DNA of 64,000 bases from Xanthobacteraceae bacterium (GTDB taxonomy: Bacteria > Pseudomonadota > Alphaproteobacteria > Rhizobiales > Xanthobacteraceae): the NCBI GenBank assembly GCA_030038995.1, contig JASHQS010000260.1:327-64326 (forward strand). The letters are read 5' to 3'. Positions 30,895 to 37,007 of this stretch are shown here, piece after piece. The position numbers and the translations under genes were made by a program. Position 1 is the stretch's first letter. Each line of letters starts with the position of its first letter. The notes under the pieces were generated by a model that worked only from the letters and a program-made list of their open reading frames with translations, was not told the DNA's origin and did not search any database.

Positions 30895-31821
30895 ATGAGC
30901 GAGCAAACCGGACGCGCCGTCTGCGTCGGTGAGGTTTTGATCGAGCTCAAGCGCGGCGGCGACGGCCGCTTTGCGCTGTCCTGCGGCGGCGACACGTTCA
31001 ACACCGCCGTCTATTTGGCGCGCGCCGGCATCAACGTCGCCTTTGCGAGCGCGATCGGCGACGATCCGTATTCCGACAGCATGCTGGCGCTGGCGGCGGC
31101 GGAAGGCATCGCCACGAATCTCGTGCTGCGCGTTCCCGGCCGGCTGCCGGCGCTTTGTCTGGTCGAAAGCGGTCCGGGCGGCGAGCGCAACGCGCGCTAT
31201 TGGCGCGACGGCGCGCCGGTGCACGAGCTGTTCGAATTGCCGGACTGGATGCGCCTCGCCGCAGGCTTGGTCGGTGCGAAGCTGATCTACTTCTCCGGCA
31301 TCACGCTGTCGCTGTTGTCGACCAACGGCATCGGCCGCTTTCTCGCCGTGCTCGAAGTGGCGCGGCGCCAGGGCGCCAAGGTGGCGTTCGACGGCAACTT
31401 CCGGCCGCGCGGCTGGAAAGGCGATCTGCCGCGCACCCGCACCGTTTTCATCGAAACGCTCAAGCGCGTCGATATGGCGCTGCCGACCTTCGACGACGAA
31501 GCGGTGCTGTGGGGCGATCCGAGCCCGGAAGCGACGGTGGCGCGGCTGCAAGCCTTCGGCATCGGCGAGATCGTGGTCAAGAACGGGCCGAACAGCGCGC
31601 TGGTCGCCAGCGCCGGCGCCCAGGACTTCGTGCCGGTGCCCGAAGTTTTGGTGCCGGTCGACACCACCGCCGCGGGCGACGGTTTCAATGCCGGCTATCT
31701 GGCGGCGCGGTTGTCCGGCAGCGAGCCGCTGCAGGCGGCGGCCGCCGCCCATCACCTCGCCGGCCACGTGATCCGCCACGCCGGCGCGCTGGCACCGCGC
31801 GTCGGAGCGGCGATGCATTGA
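30895..31821 (+). CDS. PfkB family sugar kinase (2-dehydro-3-deoxygluconokinase-like)
   Basis: C-terminal DTTAAGDGFNAGYL motif and N-terminal GG dipeptide region. Confidence 0.75.
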   Translation: MSEQTGRAVCVGEVLIELKRGGDGRFALSCGGDTFNTAVYLARAGINVAFASAIGDDPYSDSMLALAAAEGIATNLVLRVPGRLPALCLVESGPGGERNARYWRDGAPVHELFELPDWMRLAAGLVGAKLIYFSGITLSLLSTNGIGRFLAVLEVARRQGAKVAFDGNFRPRGWKGDLPRTRTVFIETLKRVDMALPTFDDEAVLWGDPSPEATVARLQAFGIGEIVVKNGPNSALVASAGAQDFVPVPEVLVPVDTTAAGDGFNAGYLAARLSGSEPLQAAAAAHHLAGHVIRHAGALAPRVGAAMH

Positions 31822-31837
31822 GCAGATCGCCTCGCCA

Positions 31838-32330
31838 GCGTAACGGCGCGAGATAGGCGGTAAAGGCTTGCGGGTCGGCCGGCGCCGCATGATCGGCGAA
31901 GCAGTTGAGCCGGCCGGCGGCATGAGCGGCGGCAAGCTTGGCGAGGAACAGCCGGCGGAACAGGCGCGAGAGCGCACGCACGGGGAGGAAGAATCCCAGC
32001 CGGCATGCGATCCAACGCTTGCCATCGGGCGAGATTCCGCCGCCCGGCGCGATCATATGTCACGTGCGGACGATGGGTCATTGCCGCGCCCCAGGCGTGC
32101 ACCAAGCGTGCAGCACCGCGGTGATGCCGACGCTGGCGCCGCGATGCTCGGGTCGGCAGCACTGGGCTAAGGCGCTTCTCGGATGCAGCGCGGCGCTGCA
32201 CGGCGCATCGCTCGACGCCTTTGCCGAATGTTTGCGCAACGATTCGACCAAAAAGTGTGTCGCGCAATCCGGGCACGCCGATTGAGGTAGTCCGGGCTCG
32301 GCCGAAACAAACCTTTTGCCGCGCACTTCC
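31838..32330 (-). mobile_element. frameshifted, truncated IS91-family (Y2) transposase remnant
   Basis: Across three frames: ...GITAVLHAW / GAAMTHRPHV / MIAPGGGISPDGKRWIACRLGFFLPVRALSRLFRRLFLAKLAAAHAAGRL...AYLAPLR. These match the conserved central block of IS91-type transposases, but both ends are missing. Confidence 0.6.
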
Positions 32331-32353
32331 GTGCACGTTCACCAGCCGGGCAT

Positions 32354-32399
32354 TGACCAGAACGAGTTTCAGGACTAACATGCATACAAAATACATATT
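32354..32399 (+). promoter_or_regulatory. putative sigma70-like promoter (TTGACC-16-TAACAT) overlapped by an NsrR-type 11-1-11 operator AACATGCATAC-A-AAATACATATT (32377-32399)
   Basis: Compared by eye with the enterobacterial NsrR consensus AAGATGCATTT-N-AAATGCATCTT: 8/11 and 9/11 matches. Lies immediately upstream of the oxidase-like operon. Confidence 0.4.
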
Positions 32400-32948
32400 A
32401 TGGGGGAGGTCGCCGTGATCCAGGACGTGGTGTGGAGCGTCTCGATCATCCTGATGGGGGCGCTTGCCCTGGTGTTCATCTGGGTGGCGACAGGGGCGAG
32501 CGTGGCAATCGCCAATTACGGTCCGGTGATCGATGCGGCCTATCGGCTGCGCGTCTGGCTGTTCGGGATCGCCCTTATCGTCCTGATCGGCACCAACTAT
32601 AAGACCGTCGGCGAACTGCCCTATATCAACACGCTGCCGCCTTTACCTGCCGCGGCCGTGCAACCCGTCCAGGTCGTTGGCCAGCAGTGGATGTGGACCA
32701 TCACGCCCAATACCTTCAAGGTCGGCCAGACCGCCGAGTTCCAGGTCACCAGCAAGGACGTGAACCACGGCTTCGGGCTCTATGATCCGGAGTTCCGCAT
32801 CGTCGCGGAGGTTCAGGCGATGCCCGGCTACACCAACGTACTGCGCTACCAGTTCACCGAGCCCGGCACCTATCAGGTGCTGTGCCTCGAATATTGCGGC
32901 GTCGCCCACCACGCGATGCAGGCGCAGATCAAAGTGACCGACCACTAA
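32400..32948 (+). CDS. heme-copper oxidase subunit II-like cupredoxin with an intact CuA site (NorS-like)
   Basis: Two N-terminal TM helices. VNHGFG ... CLEYCGVAHHAM equals H...CxExCxxxHxxM. The likely true start is GTG 32415, 5 nt after GGGGGAGG. Confidence 0.85.
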   Translation: MGEVAVIQDVVWSVSIILMGALALVFIWVATGASVAIANYGPVIDAAYRLRVWLFGIALIVLIGTNYKTVGELPYINTLPPLPAAAVQPVQVVGQQWMWTITPNTFKVGQTAEFQVTSKDVNHGFGLYDPEFRIVAEVQAMPGYTNVLRYQFTEPGTYQVLCLEYCGVAHHAMQAQIKVTDH

Positions 32949-32997
32949 GGCCGCAGATTTTCAGGCGCCGAGCGACCGAGCGATCAGGGAGGACACT

Positions 32998-34458
32998 ATG
33001 ACGATTGCAGCCACCGCAGGCCGCACCGCGATCAACCCGCGCGCAGCCGTACTCGCCTATCTCGCCGTCTCGGGGATCGTCCTTCTCTTGATGATGCTCC
33101 TGGGCCTGACCATGCGGCTCGCCCAGGCGCAATGGATCGACGTGTCGCCCGATTTCTTCTACGTGGTCATGACCATGCACGGCGCCGGCATGGTCGGCAT
33201 TGCCGGCTTGTGCAGCGCCGCGGTCATGTGGCACTTCGTGCGCCGCCACGTCCCGGTCTCGACCGCGGTCTTCCTCACCAATCTCGTGTTCTTTCTGATC
33301 GGCGCCGTGCTGATTCTCGGCGCTGGTTTCATCGGCGGATTCGGCGCCGCCTGGACGTTCCTGTTCCCGTTGCCGGCGCATTCCGGCGGGTTGTGGTCGG
33401 TGAATGCCGCGGCTGCCTATCTCGTCGGCTTGATTTTCATTGGTGTCGGATTCCTGTTGCTGCATCTCGACATCGCTCGCGGCATCCTCTCCGTCTACGG
33501 CGGGCTCGGCGCCGCGCTCGGGGTCAAGCAGGCGTTCGGTCTGGCGCACGGCGAGGAGGGACCGCCGCCGGCCGTCACCGCTTCGACGATGGCGCTGATC
33601 GCCAACATCCTTGGCATCTTGGTGGGCGCCGCGGTGCTCATTATCTCGCTGGTCAATTTGTACGTGCCGAGCTTCACCTTCAACGCGCTTGCGGCGAAGA
33701 ACCTGATCTATTATTTTGGGCATACCTTCATCAACGTCACGATCTACATGGCGGTGATCGCCGTCTACGAGATCCTGCCGATCTATGCCCATCGAGCCTG
33801 GAAGACAAACTGGGCATTCTATCTGGCGTGGGTCCTCTCGACCGTGTTCGTGCTCACCGTCTACACCCATCACCTGCTGATGGATTTCGCCATGCCGACT
33901 TGGACCCTGGTCGCCGGGCAGGTGATTTCATGGCTGAGCGGGCTGCCGGTGCTGCTGGTTACCGCCTTCGGAACGCTGACCGTCGTCTACCGTTCCGGGT
34001 TGCGCTGGAATCCGGCGGCAGCTTTGGTGTTCCTCGGCGTGGCCGGCTGGGCGATCGGGGTCATCCCGGCGATCGCTGACGGTACCATCGCCGTCAACAG
34101 CGTCATGCACAACACGCAATGGGTGCCGGGTCATTTCCATACCTATCTGCTGCTCGGCATGGTGGCGATGGTGCTCGGTTTCATGACCTATCTCACCAAC
34201 CCACAGTCACGCTACGGCGTTGCTTGGCTGGGCTATTGGCTCTATCTGCTCGGCGGCGTGGTGTTCGTGCTGGCCTTCCTGAGCGCCGGCAGCGCCAGCG
34301 TGCCGCGGCGCTACGCGGTGCACGTTGCACAATGGCTGCCCTACGACCGGATCGGATCGATCGGCGCCGCTTGCGCCATCGCCGGCGTCCTGATCTTGAT
34401 AGTGCGGTTCTTTGTCGGCATGCGCACCGCCGCAAGTGCGCAAGATCCAAGCGGATGA
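32998..34458 (+). CDS. heme-copper oxidoreductase subunit I, divergent B-like family lacking the HPxVY tyrosine (NorY-like)
   Basis: H61 (TMHGAG), H242 in GHTFIN, H291-H292 (THHLLMD), H379/H381 (GHFHTY). AGGGAGGA SD. Confidence 0.9.
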   Translation: MTIAATAGRTAINPRAAVLAYLAVSGIVLLLMMLLGLTMRLAQAQWIDVSPDFFYVVMTMHGAGMVGIAGLCSAAVMWHFVRRHVPVSTAVFLTNLVFFLIGAVLILGAGFIGGFGAAWTFLFPLPAHSGGLWSVNAAAAYLVGLIFIGVGFLLLHLDIARGILSVYGGLGAALGVKQAFGLAHGEEGPPPAVTASTMALIANILGILVGAAVLIISLVNLYVPSFTFNALAAKNLIYYFGHTFINVTIYMAVIAVYEILPIYAHRAWKTNWAFYLAWVLSTVFVLTVYTHHLLMDFAMPTWTLVAGQVISWLSGLPVLLVTAFGTLTVVYRSGLRWNPAAALVFLGVAGWAIGVIPAIADGTIAVNSVMHNTQWVPGHFHTYLLLGMVAMVLGFMTYLTNPQSRYGVAWLGYWLYLLGGVVFVLAFLSAGSASVPRRYAVHVAQWLPYDRIGSIGAACAIAGVLILIVRFFVGMRTAASAQDPSG

Positions 34459-35066
34459 CGCGCGGCTTTCCAGTTCTGCTCGCTTTCGTCCTGTCGATCG
34501 GGATTGGTACGCTCGCCTTCGAAACTGACGGTTTCCGCGTCGTCACCAGCGCCGGCGCGCGGCAATTGTCGATCGAACGCGCGCCGCAAGGCGTGCCGGA
34601 CGCCCAGCTCGTCGATCAGGACGGTACGCCGTTCACGTTGGCCGACTATAAGGGCCGGCCGGTGCTGATCGACTTCATATATACGCGCTGTCCGACGATC
34701 TGCACCGCGCTGGGCGACGATTTCGCGCGCCTGCGGCAGCTCATGGGCGGGACGCGAGCGCACGCTGCAATCGATCTCCTCAGTATCAGCTTCGATCCGA
34801 CCGACAACCGCGCGGCGCTGCGGCTTTACGGCGACCGCTTCGGCGCCAAGGCGCCGCGCTGGCGCATTGCCGCAGCCGCCGACCAGCGCGCGCGTGCCGC
34901 ATTGCTGCACAGCTTCGGCGTCGTGGTGATTCCCGACGGCCTGGGCGGCTTCATTCACAACGACGCCGTCTATGTGGTGGATGCGCAGGGCCGCCTCGCC
35001 CGCATTCTCGATTCCGATGCGCCGGACCGGCTTCTCGCTGCGGCCGTGCAGGTCGCGGCGCCATGA
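34455..35066 (+). CDS. senC: SCO1/SenC family copper chaperone
   Basis: N-terminal TM helix plus YTRCPTIC (CxxxC) thioredoxin-fold motif. ATGA overlap with subunit I. Confidence 0.85.
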   Translation: MTRGFPVLLAFVLSIGIGTLAFETDGFRVVTSAGARQLSIERAPQGVPDAQLVDQDGTPFTLADYKGRPVLIDFIYTRCPTICTALGDDFARLRQLMGGTRAHAAIDLLSISFDPTDNRAALRLYGDRFGAKAPRWRIAAAADQRARAALLHSFGVVVIPDGLGGFIHNDAVYVVDAQGRLARILDSDAPDRLLAAAVQVAAP

Positions 35067-35683
35067 ACGCCCGGCTTCTCGCAGCAGCCACGGGATCGTG
35101 GCTCGTTCTCTGGCTGCCGCCCATCCGCCACACGCTCGAAAGCGATATGGTGCTGCATATGGCGGTGCAGGTGCCGCTGCTGATCATGCTGGGCGTCCTC
35201 GTCGCCGTGGTCGCGCGCGACCGCGAGCCGCGTTGGCTCGCCGATGCCGACTGGCTCGGCATTCCAGGCATCGTGGCGGTCGTGCTGGGCACCTCATTCT
35301 GGATGCTGCCGCGGGCGCTGGATCAGGCGGTCTCCGATCCGTGGGCCGATCTCATCAAGTTCTTAAGCCTGCCGTTGCTGGTCGGCGTGCCCTTGGGCTT
35401 GAGCTGGCGGCGGATGCCGCCGCTCGGGCGCGCGTTCATCTGGGCCAACTTCATTCCCAAACTCGGCGCCATAGGCGGCCTGTATCTCGGCGCGCCGACG
35501 CGGCTTTGCGCCTATTACCGGCTTGACCAACAGGAACTCGCCGGCTGGACCCTGATCGCCATCGCGGTCGCGCTGGGAATGACGTGGTTCTTTGCCGCGT
35601 TTGTCGGCTGGACGCCGAGCTGCGCGAAACAATCCCCACGCCGCTCGGGCGGCTTTCTCATTGCGGCAGTGGGAGGGAATTGA
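35063..35683 (+). CDS. polytopic membrane protein, CtaG(caa3)-like assembly factor candidate (the 'orf1' position of norSY-senC-orf1 clusters)
   Basis: About 6 hydrophobic helices. The HMAVQVPLLIMLG motif is reminiscent of the Caa3_CtaG family. ATGA overlap with senC. Confidence 0.5.
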   Translation: MNARLLAAATGSWLVLWLPPIRHTLESDMVLHMAVQVPLLIMLGVLVAVVARDREPRWLADADWLGIPGIVAVVLGTSFWMLPRALDQAVSDPWADLIKFLSLPLLVGVPLGLSWRRMPPLGRAFIWANFIPKLGAIGGLYLGAPTRLCAYYRLDQQELAGWTLIAIAVALGMTWFFAAFVGWTPSCAKQSPRRSGGFLIAAVGGN

Positions 35684-35710
35684 CGCCACTCACTTCGGGA
35701 AAGGGAGTTG

Positions 35711-35986
35711 ATGATGAGCAACAGCAAGTACGGTTCGCAGACTATCTCACGACGCGCGGCGCTCACGGGTACCGCGCTCGGGTTTGTCTTGGCCGCCGAC
35801 GCGGCGATCACGTGCGCCAGCGCGCAGCAAAAGCTCTCGCAGGCGGCAGCCAAGTATCAGGACCAGCCGAAGGGACAGCAAAGCTGTGCGGTGTGCGCCA
35901 ACTTTCAACCCCCCAACGCCTGCAGGTTCGTGCAGGGGACGATCAGCCCTCAAGGCTGGTGCCTGCTGTTCGCGGCCAAGACCTGA
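35711..35986 (+). CDS. high-potential iron-sulfur protein (HiPIP) with a Tat signal
   Basis: SRRAALTG twin-arginine signal. CAVCANF...C.F..G.ISP.GWC matches the four-Cys HiPIP pattern. Only about 25 nt after the preceding gene. Confidence 0.8.
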   Translation: MMSNSKYGSQTISRRAALTGTALGFVLAADAAITCASAQQKLSQAAAKYQDQPKGQQSCAVCANFQPPNACRFVQGTISPQGWCLLFAAKT

Positions 35987-36026
35987 CCGCTTTGCGTACG
36001 ACGAAGATGGGACTTGTCAGCCTACT

Positions 36027-36045
36027 TCATATAAAATTTATCTAT
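36027..36045. promoter_or_regulatory. AT-rich imperfect palindrome CATATAAAATTTATCTATG upstream of the Rrf2 gene
   Basis: 14/19 self-complementary positions. Possible autoregulatory site. It does not align well with the 32377 box. Confidence 0.2.
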
Positions 36046-36107
36046 GCTGCCCATAGCGGACCGGGACCGACGCTGCCAGCGTTGGTCCCGGCTCCACGGA
36101 GAAGAAG

Positions 36108-36560
36108 ATGCGGCTGACACTTCATACCGATTACGCCCTGCGTGTGCTCATTCATGTCGCCCTCGCTGGCGGCAAGTTGACAACGATCAACGATATTGCC
36201 GAAAGCTTCGACATTTCGAAGCAGCACTTGATGAAAGTCGTGAACGATCTCGGCCAAAGGGGCTATCTCGACACCGTTCGCGGCCGCAAGGGCGGTATCC
36301 GCCTGCGCCGTCAGCCGCGCGATATCAATATCGGCCGGGTGGTGCGGGAGACCGAGGACAAGCTCGGGGTTATCGGCTGCCTGGAGCAGCGCGGCTATTG
36401 CCGGATCGAGCGCGTCTGCGTGCTGCGCGGCGTGTTGCGTGAGGCGACCAACGCGTTCCTTGCGGTGTTGGATGCGCACACGCTCGCCGATCTGATCAAA
36501 CCGCGGAAGGCGTTGTCGTCGTTGCTGATGCTCGATCAGCACGCAGCGCGTACCCAGTAA
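36108..36560 (+). CDS. nsrR: Rrf2 family transcriptional regulator, NsrR-like
   Basis: MRLTLHTDYALRVLIHVA wHTH N-terminus. Three Cys in GCLEQRGYCRIERVCVL (cluster-ligand spacing as in NsrR/IscR). GGAGAAG SD. Confidence 0.8.
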   Translation: MRLTLHTDYALRVLIHVALAGGKLTTINDIAESFDISKQHLMKVVNDLGQRGYLDTVRGRKGGIRLRRQPRDINIGRVVRETEDKLGVIGCLEQRGYCRIERVCVLRGVLREATNAFLAVLDAHTLADLIKPRKALSSLLMLDQHAARTQ

Positions 36561-36564
36561 CAAG

Positions 36565-36584
36565 GGTGTCCGGTGCGGGACACC
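36565..36584 (+). terminator. hairpin GGTGTCC-N6-GGACACC 5 nt after the nsrR stop
   Basis: Perfect 7-bp stem. No clear U-tract. Confidence 0.3.
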
Positions 36585-36898
36585 AAGCTGCGGCCAAAAT
36601 GGTGCAGAGAATTGGGCTAAAGCAACGGTGATCAGATCGGGGCCATCGGTAGTGCGAGGTTTTGGGCGTTGGATTTTCTTGTCTGGGTGGAGGTCCGATT
36701 CCGACCCGCAAAAAATGAAAAATCTCCAGCAATTTCGCGCAAGCGGTTTAGTCCCCCGACCCATCGGCGCCACGGCTGTGAGTTCTTTGCGGCAGCGTGA
36801 AACGAATTTGTTGGAGACAAAACTCGCTGCGAGTACGGTTCTCGGGTCGATCTTAGAGCATGTTCCGCTCCGATCGAATCGCGACTCCTCGGTTCGTC

Positions 36899-36966
36899 AT
36901 TGCCGGGCTTGACCCGGCAATCCATGCTGCGTCGGGGCCGCATGGATGCGCGGGTCAAGCCCGCGC
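36899..36966. repeat. REP hairpins (ATTGCCGGG-cttga-CCCGGCAAT; GCGCGGG-tcaa-GCCCGCGC)
   Basis: Read directly. Confidence 0.55.
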
Positions 36967-37007
36967 ATGACGGGGAAGTGGCGCTACATGAGCGAGATCT
37001 GCTCTAG

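Follow-up and report, generated by a model that had tools for sequence, protein, structure and literature searches.

A sNOR-type haem-copper gene cassette with a predicted NsrR operator and an in-operon HiPIP gene in a Xanthobacteraceae bacterium

The gene cluster described here raises the question of whether a haem-copper enzyme encoded beside a putative nitric oxide (NO) sensor reduces NO or oxygen (O2), and which protein brings it electrons. The cluster is part of a 64,000-nucleotide stretch of DNA from a Xanthobacteraceae bacterium (assembly GCA_030038995.1, contig JASHQS010000260.1, positions 327 to 64,326). This whole stretch is called the window, and coordinates of the cluster refer to it. 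The genes are norS and norY, which encode subunits II and I, followed by senC, orf4, a gene for a high-potential iron-sulfur protein (HiPIP), and nsrR. The enzyme is assigned to sNOR, a proposed NO-reductase family that is thought to add to nitrous oxide (N2O) production and whose function, as an NO reductase or as a high-affinity oxidase, is disputed. Positions 32346-36573 would form a self-contained, NO-responsive cassette, and we regard the complete account, with NO reduction by the enzyme and the HiPIP as its donor, as evenly poised between right and wrong. The operator evidence and the slot for a carrier gene are useful additions to the open question of what sNOR does.

Family assignment of NorS and NorY

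NorS and NorY almost certainly belong to the sNOR branch of the haem-copper superfamily. NorS matches the Pfam family COX2 (29.9 bits, cut-off 22) and contains the CuA ligands H123, C162, C166, H170 and M173, numbered from ATG 32400. NorY matches COX1 with 151 bits. Its residues H61, H242, H291, H292, H379 and H381 do not vary in a family alignment of 30 sequences or across 81 loci. A preliminary description of this DNA had reported a complete CuA signature in a 182-amino-acid cupredoxin subunit and haem and CuB histidines in subunit I; all five ligands were found, and the histidines are at the positions that it gave.

The active site of NorY differs from that of its closest solved relatives in a way that is conserved throughout the family. 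These relatives are all structures of Thermus thermophilus ba3 (PDB 1EHK/1XME), with an expectation value (E) of about 1e-7 over residues 227-475. The cross-link tyrosine of ba3, Y237, aligns to N246 of NorY, and S309 aligns to V318. The motif H-x3-N replaces H-x3-Y, with N246 present in all 81 loci, and position 318 is Val, Ile or Leu in every locus and never Ser. Y250, Y257 and T322 are also invariant, and E258 is found in 77 loci. Y289 is Phe in 20 of the loci and is therefore not an obligatory substitute for the missing tyrosine. The published traits of sNOR are derivation from the B family, a CuA subunit, absence of the active-site tyrosine, and a K-channel that lacks S309 and has a conserved Glu (PMC11214002). 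The main text of that paper names no residue for the Glu, and E258 is a candidate.

The distribution of NorY and the order of its neighbours point to the same family. A search over 1.84 billion cluster representatives gave 527 relatives. The full-length representatives of 50% clusters that score above 150 bits all have H-x3-N, except one with S, and HPxVY is found only at 138 bits or less. A genome scan with one genome per species yielded 80 loci, including those of Nitrosovibrio sp. Nv6, Nitrosospira multiformis and Nitrobacter sp. JJSN. NorY is 92-95% identical to its nearest relatives, which come from Xanthobacteraceae metagenome-assembled genomes, 77% identical to that of Nitrobacter sp. 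JJSN, and 54% identical to those of Nitrosospira and Nitrosovibrio. With few exceptions among the 81 loci, tblastn recovered the order norS-norY-senC-orf4, also in Nitrosospira multiformis and Nitrosovibrio Nv6. The haem-copper NO reductase cluster of ammonia oxidisers is named norSY-senC-orf1 (PMC3764937), and the arrangement known from nitrifiers, which had been recognized from the window alone, is thereby confirmed as a four-gene synteny in about 80 loci.

The phylogeny of subunit I had been proposed as a check that could refute the assignment. In a neighbour-joining tree without bootstrap values, the NorY of the window groups with NorY of Nitrobacter and ammonia oxidisers, the H-x3-N sequences all lie apart from the HPxVY sequences, and there is no clustering inside the B-family O2 reductases. 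The lack of bootstrap values and of labelled eNOR, bNOR, gNOR and nNOR references weakens this part of the case. NorY is read as sNOR and not as a B-family oxidase because of its orthology, the gene order in about 80 genomes, and the replacement of the tyrosine by an invariant Asn. The earlier assignment to the sNOR branch is thus backed by orthology, four-gene synteny, the H-x3-N motif and a tree position outside the HPxVY group. The novelty claimed for the locus was overstated for its core, since the sNOR family and the gene order had already been described. The core is a further member of a known family, and the in-operon HiPIP is a variant confined to a small clade.

The sNOR family is systematically misnamed in public annotation. 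NCBI records give its subunit I the name 'cbb3-type cytochrome c oxidase subunit I' and list one norS as 'cytochrome C oxidase subunit I'.

The next two genes of the cluster are conserved together with norY. SenC matches Pfam SCO1-SenC with 56 bits and contains C79-PTI-C83 and the distal H168, so that the CxxxC SCO1/SenC chaperone of the preliminary description is confirmed by both profile and ligands. With few exceptions in the 81 loci, norY is followed by senC and senC by orf4, in ammonia oxidisers too. The orf4 product has the conserved motifs LE..M..HM.VQ.PLL, FWMLPR.LD and LY..AP.R.C. This gene context suggests that Orf4 is an assembly factor. No Pfam match to Orf4, even at E <= 10, and no NCBIfam match was obtained. 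Among 20 homologues, three match DUF1404 weakly (4.5e-4) and none matches CtaG at E <= 1; CtaG is the name of an Orf4 homologue in a single JGI record. The label 'CtaG-like' was rejected, as neither Pfam nor NCBIfam supports it for the window protein or the 20 homologues. An AlphaFold model from a 30-sequence alignment was too poor for a fold search (predicted local distance difference test score, pLDDT, 56.5; predicted template modelling score, pTM, 0.45).

Promoter, operator and regulator

The cassette is very probably controlled by NsrR. The operon promoter (Table 1) is the sole plus-strand match in a promoter scan of positions 31800-36800. The operator ATGCATACAAAATACAT overlaps its -10 box and is an exact match to the core of the published NsrR consensus, gATGyAT-N5-ATrCATc (PMC1274295). 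It is the one exact consensus match in the 64-kilobase window, compared with 0.03 expected. The same palindrome lies 31-36 nucleotides before the norS start in loci L001-L013, L015 and L034, and it is also found in many distant loci with an adjacent Rrf2 gene. The background in the remaining 862 kilobases of locus sequence was 10 matches with at most one mismatch.

Of the 78 loci that could be evaluated, 35 have an Rrf2 gene next to the cluster; it is downstream on the same strand in 19 and upstream and divergent in 10. The NsrR box tracks this gene: it is present in 20 and absent from 15 loci with an adjacent Rrf2 gene, and present in 6 and absent from 37 without one (Fisher p = 8e-5, uncorrected for relatedness). 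The loci are not phylogenetically independent, so the test overstates the support for NsrR control, which counts against that reading. The ammonia-oxidiser and Rhodocyclaceae loci have no adjacent Rrf2 gene and no NsrR box. Overall, predicted NsrR-type repression is a widespread feature of the sNOR family and is present here. The link to NsrR is stronger than first claimed: there is an exact operator at the promoter, its position is conserved, and it co-occurs with an adjacent Rrf2 gene. The presence of nsrR in cis with a promoter operator, recurring across many lineages, would put sNOR in an NO-responsive regulon, and the operon is predicted to be induced by NO.

The regulator itself resembles NsrR and RirA almost equally in profile scores. 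It matches Pfam Rrf2 with 120 bits. Among NCBIfam models NsrR scores highest, with 130 bits (cut-off 182), followed by RirA with 125 (cut-off 193), and the NsrR model was built on enterobacterial NsrR. The score below the cut-off and the nearly equal RirA score weigh against the name NsrR. They are also grounds for an alternative in which the Rrf2 protein is a sensor of iron, redox or Fe-S status, like RirA or IscR, so that the cassette answers to metal or redox state and not to NO. The cysteine spacing C-x6-C-x5-C fits this alternative as well, being intermediate between those of NsrR and RirA. We consider such a sensor very improbable. The operator is an exact NsrR consensus and not an IscR or RirA box, and the best solved relative of the protein is Streptomyces coelicolor NsrR (5N07, E 7e-17). 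D8, C91, C98 and C104 align to D8, C93, C99 and C105 of that structure, so Asp8 is conserved and the three cysteines noted earlier are present. Moreover, the regulated genes encode a proposed NO reductase, and the cytochrome c gene found next to that enzyme in sister loci also has this box in front of it.

The expression of nsrR is less clear than that of the operon. The preliminary description gave the gene its own promoter, and the scan of positions 31800-36800 found no sigma-70-type promoter before it. The inserted HiPIP segment ends just upstream of a conserved CATAGC box in the nsrR leader that resembles a -10 element. For these two reasons a separate nsrR promoter is uncertain. No NsrR box that might indicate autoregulation was found upstream of nsrR. 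The leader hairpin (Table 1) sits between the CATAGC box and the ribosome-binding site of nsrR and is not conserved as a hairpin in relatives.

A related arrangement is found in Ruegeria pomeroyi DSS-3, on the megaplasmid NC_006569.1 at positions 192928-202322 (L165). Its genes are a divergent Rrf2 gene, norS, norY, an SCO gene, orf4, a formate/nitrite transporter family gene and a cytochrome c gene, and a cbb3 oxidase operon adjoins them. A related palindrome, AGGTAT-TTAAA-ATACCT, lies at a TTGACA promoter. R. pomeroyi is a model marine bacterium and could be a tractable system for tests of sNOR.

Reaction and electron donor

The reaction of NorSY is probably NO reduction, which is favoured because the loss of the tyrosine is invariant. 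NO reduction by sNOR has been predicted from the active site, which is stated to be the same as in the characterized enzyme bNOR (PMC11214002). Several points weigh against it. No sNOR has been purified and the activity is a prediction (PMC11214002), and a literature search found no norY mutant and no purified or biochemically characterized sNOR. O2 limitation induces the cluster of Nitrosomonas europaea, and Sedlacek et al. prefer its interpretation as a high-affinity oxidase (PMC6967387). Control by NsrR fits an NO reductase and an oxidase alike; the NsrR targets of Vibrio fischeri include an NO-related alternative oxidase (PMC1274295). The literature is therefore divided between NO and O2 as the substrate (PMC11214002 vs PMC6967387).

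In the oxidase alternative, the enzyme would be an NO-tolerant or high-affinity terminal O2 reductase that NsrR induces when NO poisons the main oxidases. It would sustain respiration, and the HiPIP would still be its donor. This alternative is unlikely. The 2.7- to 10.8-fold rise of norSY-senC in N. europaea under O2 limitation, for which an oxidase role was proposed (PMC6967387), speaks for it, as does the place of the alternative oxidase in the V. fischeri NsrR regulon (PMC1274295). The closest solved relative is an O2 reductase, and the three-histidine site and the copper chaperone resemble those of oxidases. However, the cross-link tyrosine, needed by all known O2-reducing haem-copper enzymes, is Asn in all 81 loci, and the sole tyrosine nearby, Y289, is not conserved. 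In addition, bNOR reportedly has the same active site and has been shown by experiment to be an NO reductase (PMC11214002), and the R. pomeroyi cluster is coupled with a formate/nitrite transporter family gene.

The HiPIP belongs to a group of short proteins typified by PioC and Iro. A twin-arginine translocation (Tat) motif, SRRAALTG, and a cleavage-like site, ASA-QQ, can be read from its sequence. SRR, C60, C63, C72, W84 and C85 are invariant in homologues, and the cysteine spacing is C-x2-C-x8-C-x12-C. The best solved match of the homologue profile is PioC of Rhodopseudomonas palustris (6XYV, E 6e-16), and other HiPIPs come next. The protein is below curated cut-offs (Pfam HIPIP, 14.1 vs 22 bits; NCBIfam Iro, 72 vs 100 bits), and short HiPIPs of this type are poorly covered by these models. 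Its identification as a HiPIP with a Tat signal is upheld by the twin-arginine motif, the four invariant cysteines and the PioC match.

The HiPIP gene is a lineage-specific insertion between orf4 and nsrR. In a blastn comparison, positions ~35631-36050 stand in place of ~120 nucleotides of L003, suggesting that the insertion is recent. In L003, L006, L007, L008 and L013, nsrR directly follows orf4. Among the 81 genome sNOR loci the HiPIP is found in one, L002, the closest relative; two metagenome loci, L082 and L085, have it as well. The six-gene order, with a HiPIP spacing of 24-27 nucleotides, is common to the window, L002 and L082, whose flanks differ, and at least six more short contigs appear to carry both the HiPIP and orf4. 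L085 (1357-3866) is a degenerated cassette in which the carrier and the regulator survive: a 5-aminolevulinate synthase gene and short senC and orf4 remnants precede the HiPIP and nsrR, and the sNOR genes are lost.

Most relatives of the HiPIP occur in other contexts. Among 83 loci fetched with HiPIP homologues, only those at least 79% identical adjoin sNOR or nsrR. Paralogues that are 47-74% identical have a cytochrome P460 gene as their upstream neighbour, in the same orientation and 23-220 nucleotides away, in 31 of the 65 metagenome loci with a callable neighbour (including L083, L088, L094, L096, L102, L106, L114, L115, L119, L121, L128, L130, L135, L138, L140, L141 and L152). Two representative P460 neighbours match Pfam PF16694 with 113 and 102 bits. 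No NsrR boxes were found upstream of the P460-HiPIP pairs in 325 kilobases, L086 excepted. In L086 (182-2534), an exact NsrR box is followed by genes for a membrane-anchored cytochrome c and a HiPIP that is 74% identical, and then by hemA for 5-aminolevulinate synthase. The 64-kilobase window was searched for a second HiPIP, cytochrome P460, cytochrome c and a further sNOR copy, and none was found. A literature search found no paper that treats HiPIP jointly with either sNOR or cytochrome P460.

Whether the HiPIP is the electron donor of sNOR is about equally likely to be answered either way. Periplasmic carrier genes recur beside sNOR. A class I cytochrome c gene (Pfam PF00034) lies between orf4 and nsrR on the opposite strand in L005 (8683-9060, minus strand), L009 (5154-5534, minus) and L012 (8680-9060, minus), and an exact NsrR box precedes it in L005 (at 9083) and L009 (at 5564). 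In R. pomeroyi a cytochrome c gene lies downstream of the sNOR cluster on the same strand. This recurrence suggests that the HiPIP takes the place of the carrier here, and the NsrR-boxed cytochrome c in the same slot of sister loci supports a donor role. The repeated linkage of HiPIP paralogues to N-oxide genes, with P460 upstream and in L086, was also counted for that role. With the candidate donor encoded in the cassette itself, as a HiPIP in the window and as a cytochrome c in sister loci, in vitro assays of defined components and simple genetic tests become feasible.

The evidence against a donor role is of several kinds. The HiPIP is absent from 80 of the 81 genome loci and is therefore dispensable for the enzyme family, and most sNOR loci encode no carrier. 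The retention of HiPIP and nsrR in L085 after the loss of sNOR means that the protein may have another partner. The potentials of PioC-type HiPIPs, about +400 to +450 mV, are above that of a typical CuA, so electron transfer could be uphill. These observations fit an alternative in which the HiPIP is a periplasmic carrier of general use, or one that serves a different N-oxide enzyme, for example cytochrome P460, and that was recombined into an NO-responsive transcript, while sNOR is fed by ordinary cytochromes c. Its rarity among sNOR loci and the other contexts of 80 of the 83 HiPIP-homologue loci, mostly downstream of cytochrome P460, favour this alternative. It is nevertheless somewhat doubtful, because the window, L002 and L082 are three independent contexts that keep the spacing and the six-gene order, the further contigs also appear to join HiPIP and orf4, and the NsrR-boxed cytochrome c in the same slot of L005 and L009 argues for selection of a carrier gene there.

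A broader and rather unlikely proposal would unite these contexts. The PioC-like HiPIP subfamily of soil Xanthobacteraceae might be a dedicated periplasmic carrier of N-oxide chemistry, taking electrons from cytochrome P460, its most frequent upstream neighbour, as that enzyme oxidizes hydroxylamine and NO, and in this lineage also passing them to an NsrR-induced sNOR. If so, an iron-sulfur protein and not a haem protein would connect the oxidation of hydroxylamine or NO with the reduction of NO, perhaps because NO blocks it less easily than a cytochrome c. The question of whether sNOR reduces NO could then be settled with a natural pair of donor and enzyme, the first of its kind.

With NO reduction as the favoured reaction and the HiPIP as a candidate donor, the cassette may work as follows. 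The Fe-S cluster of NsrR would be held by C91, C98, C104 and Asp8, and the protein would bind ATGCAT-N5-ATACAT and repress the single operon promoter. NO would damage the cluster and release NsrR from the DNA, and norS-norY-senC-orf4-hipip would then be transcribed as one message. SenC would load the CuA copper, and Orf4 may act as an assembly or stability factor. NorS, with CuA, and NorY would form a B-family-derived haem-copper enzyme of the sNOR type, in which NorY is predicted to hold a low-spin haem, a high-spin haem and a three-histidine metal site with no cross-link tyrosine. The most likely reaction, in the membrane, would be 2 NO + 2 e- + 2 H+ -> N2O + H2O. A path like the K-channel (Y250, Y257, E258 and T322) may bring protons from the cytoplasm. 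The PioC-like HiPIP, once exported by Tat, would be a periplasmic one-electron shuttle, probably from the bc1 complex to CuA, replacing the NsrR-controlled cytochrome c that sister cassettes have at the same position.

Layout, setting and relation to known systems

The cassette consists of five co-directional, tightly spaced genes at 32400-35986 and the Rrf2 gene that follows them. This layout of six genes is as first described, with the two ATGA overlaps, the CuA ligands and all six subunit I histidines in place, and was verified in the open reading frame list and the bases. Matches to COX2, COX1, SCO1-SenC and Rrf2 are all above the curated Pfam cut-offs. The norY/senC overlap at 34455 reads GG-ATGA-CG, and the senC/orf4 overlap at 35063 reads CC-ATGA-AC. 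The gap between orf4 and the HiPIP frame, claimed to be about 25 nucleotides, is 24 when counted to 35708, and a ribosome-binding site, GGGAAAGGGAG, precedes the HiPIP gene.

Table 1. Coordinates of the cassette features in the window
Feature	Position	Strand	Description
Operon promoter, sigma-70-like	32353..32381	+	TTGACC, 17-nucleotide spacer, TAACAT; 9/12 matches in the promoter scan
NsrR operator, predicted	32380..32396	no strand	ATGCAT-ACAAA-ATACAT; overlaps the -10 box and the likely transcription start
norS, CuA subunit II	32415..32948	+	177 amino acids from GTG 32415; 182 if ATG 32400; Pfam COX2
norY, haem-copper subunit I, sNOR family	32998..34458	+	486 amino acids; Pfam COX1
senC, SCO1/SenC copper chaperone	34455..35066	+	203 amino acids; Pfam SCO1-SenC
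orf4 ('orf1' of norSY-senC-orf1), polytopic membrane protein	35063..35683	+	206 amino acids
HiPIP, PioC/Iro-like, Tat-exported	35711..35986	+	Open reading frame 35708-35986, 92 amino acids; fifth operon gene
G+C-rich hairpin, nsrR leader	36061..36091	no strand	15-nucleotide arms, 93% complementarity, 1-nucleotide loop
nsrR, Rrf2-family [Fe-S] regulator	36108..36560	+	150 amino acids; Pfam Rrf2

Two gene starts probably differ from those of the longest reading frames. The start of norS is probably the GTG and not the ATG. The GTG has a strong ribosome-binding site, GGGGGAGG at 32402-09, and the ATG has none; the orthologue in the closest complete genome is called with 177 amino acids; and the operator ends 4 nucleotides before the ATG. 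The HiPIP probably starts at ATG 35711 or 35714, because its homologues begin with MMSN or MSN. No significant terminator was found between orf4 and the HiPIP gene; there is one weak hairpin at 35640, and the count of terminator-like sites equals the expectation from shuffled sequence. The five genes from norS to the HiPIP are predicted to be co-transcribed.

The cassette appears to move between genomic contexts. DNA homology to ten close relatives (L001-L007, L012, L082 and L085) starts at 32346-32351, just upstream of the -35 box, and ends at 36511-36573, where nsrR ends; the sequence on either side is unrelated in every case. A discrete block of homology with unrelated flanks suggests that the cassette acts as a relocatable module, and this bears on the spread of NO-handling capacity among soil bacteria. 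No repeats bounding the cassette were found. An IS91-type transposase fragment lies about 300 nucleotides upstream, at 31685-32056 on the minus strand (Pfam Y2_Tnp, E 3.3e-9, profile positions 21-87 of 183). The genes around the cassette, which are znuABC-like or encode a PfkB kinase, a MocR-type regulator, an MFS transporter and a LysR regulator, are unconnected with nitrogen oxides. About 330 nucleotides downstream of nsrR, at 36895-36972, there is a 36-nucleotide imperfect inverted repeat with 81% complementarity and a 6-nucleotide loop. It resembles palindromic intergenic repeat elements that are presumably common in Bradyrhizobium-type genomes.

Among haem-copper enzymes, T. thermophilus ba3 shares the histidine ligands of NorY, and its K-channel residues Y248 and T312 correspond to Y257 and T322. 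In contrast to NorY, with N246 and V318, it has the H233-Y237 cross-link and S309, and it reduces O2. The enzyme bNOR (qCuANOR) of Bacillus azotoformans is also a CuA-containing, B-family-derived NO reductase, and the published description likens it to sNOR (Murali et al., PMC11214002). The two are reported not to be closely related, their similarity being convergent, and bNOR is confined to Bacillales (PMC11214002).

Electron transfer from a HiPIP to a haem-copper enzyme has a precedent in the caa3 HiPIP:oxygen oxidoreductase of Rhodothermus marinus, as far as the title cited in PMC11214002 indicates. It differs from the window enzyme in being an A-family O2 reductase with a fused cytochrome c domain; no operon linkage to the HiPIP is implied, and it is not known to be regulated by NO. 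The known proteins closest to the window HiPIP are PioC of R. palustris TIE-1 (6XYV) and Iro of Acidithiobacillus ferrooxidans. PioC has the same mature size of 54 residues, cysteine spacing and Tat export. It carries electrons from an iron oxidase to the photosynthetic reaction centre, whereas the window HiPIP gene sits in a proposed NO-reductase operon.

The NsrR regulons of beta- and gammaproteobacteria (hmp, ytfE/dnrN, hcp, nnrS and nirK) have the same Rrf2-type regulator and the same operator overlapping the promoter. In the 2005 reconstruction of these regulons, there was almost no NsrR in alphaproteobacteria and no haem-copper enzyme among the targets (PMC1274295).

The closest known system is the norSY-senC-orf1 cluster of Nitrosomonas, Nitrosospira and Nitrobacter. 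It has the same four genes in the same order as the window, and its enzyme has the H-x3-N motif, the CuA subunit and apparently the K-channel variant in common with NorSY. The window cassette differs in the HiPIP, which is added as a fifth operon gene, and in having nsrR in cis and an NsrR operator, neither of which is found in the sampled ammonia-oxidiser loci. Its host is not a nitrifier but a soil alphaproteobacterium of the Xanthobacteraceae type.

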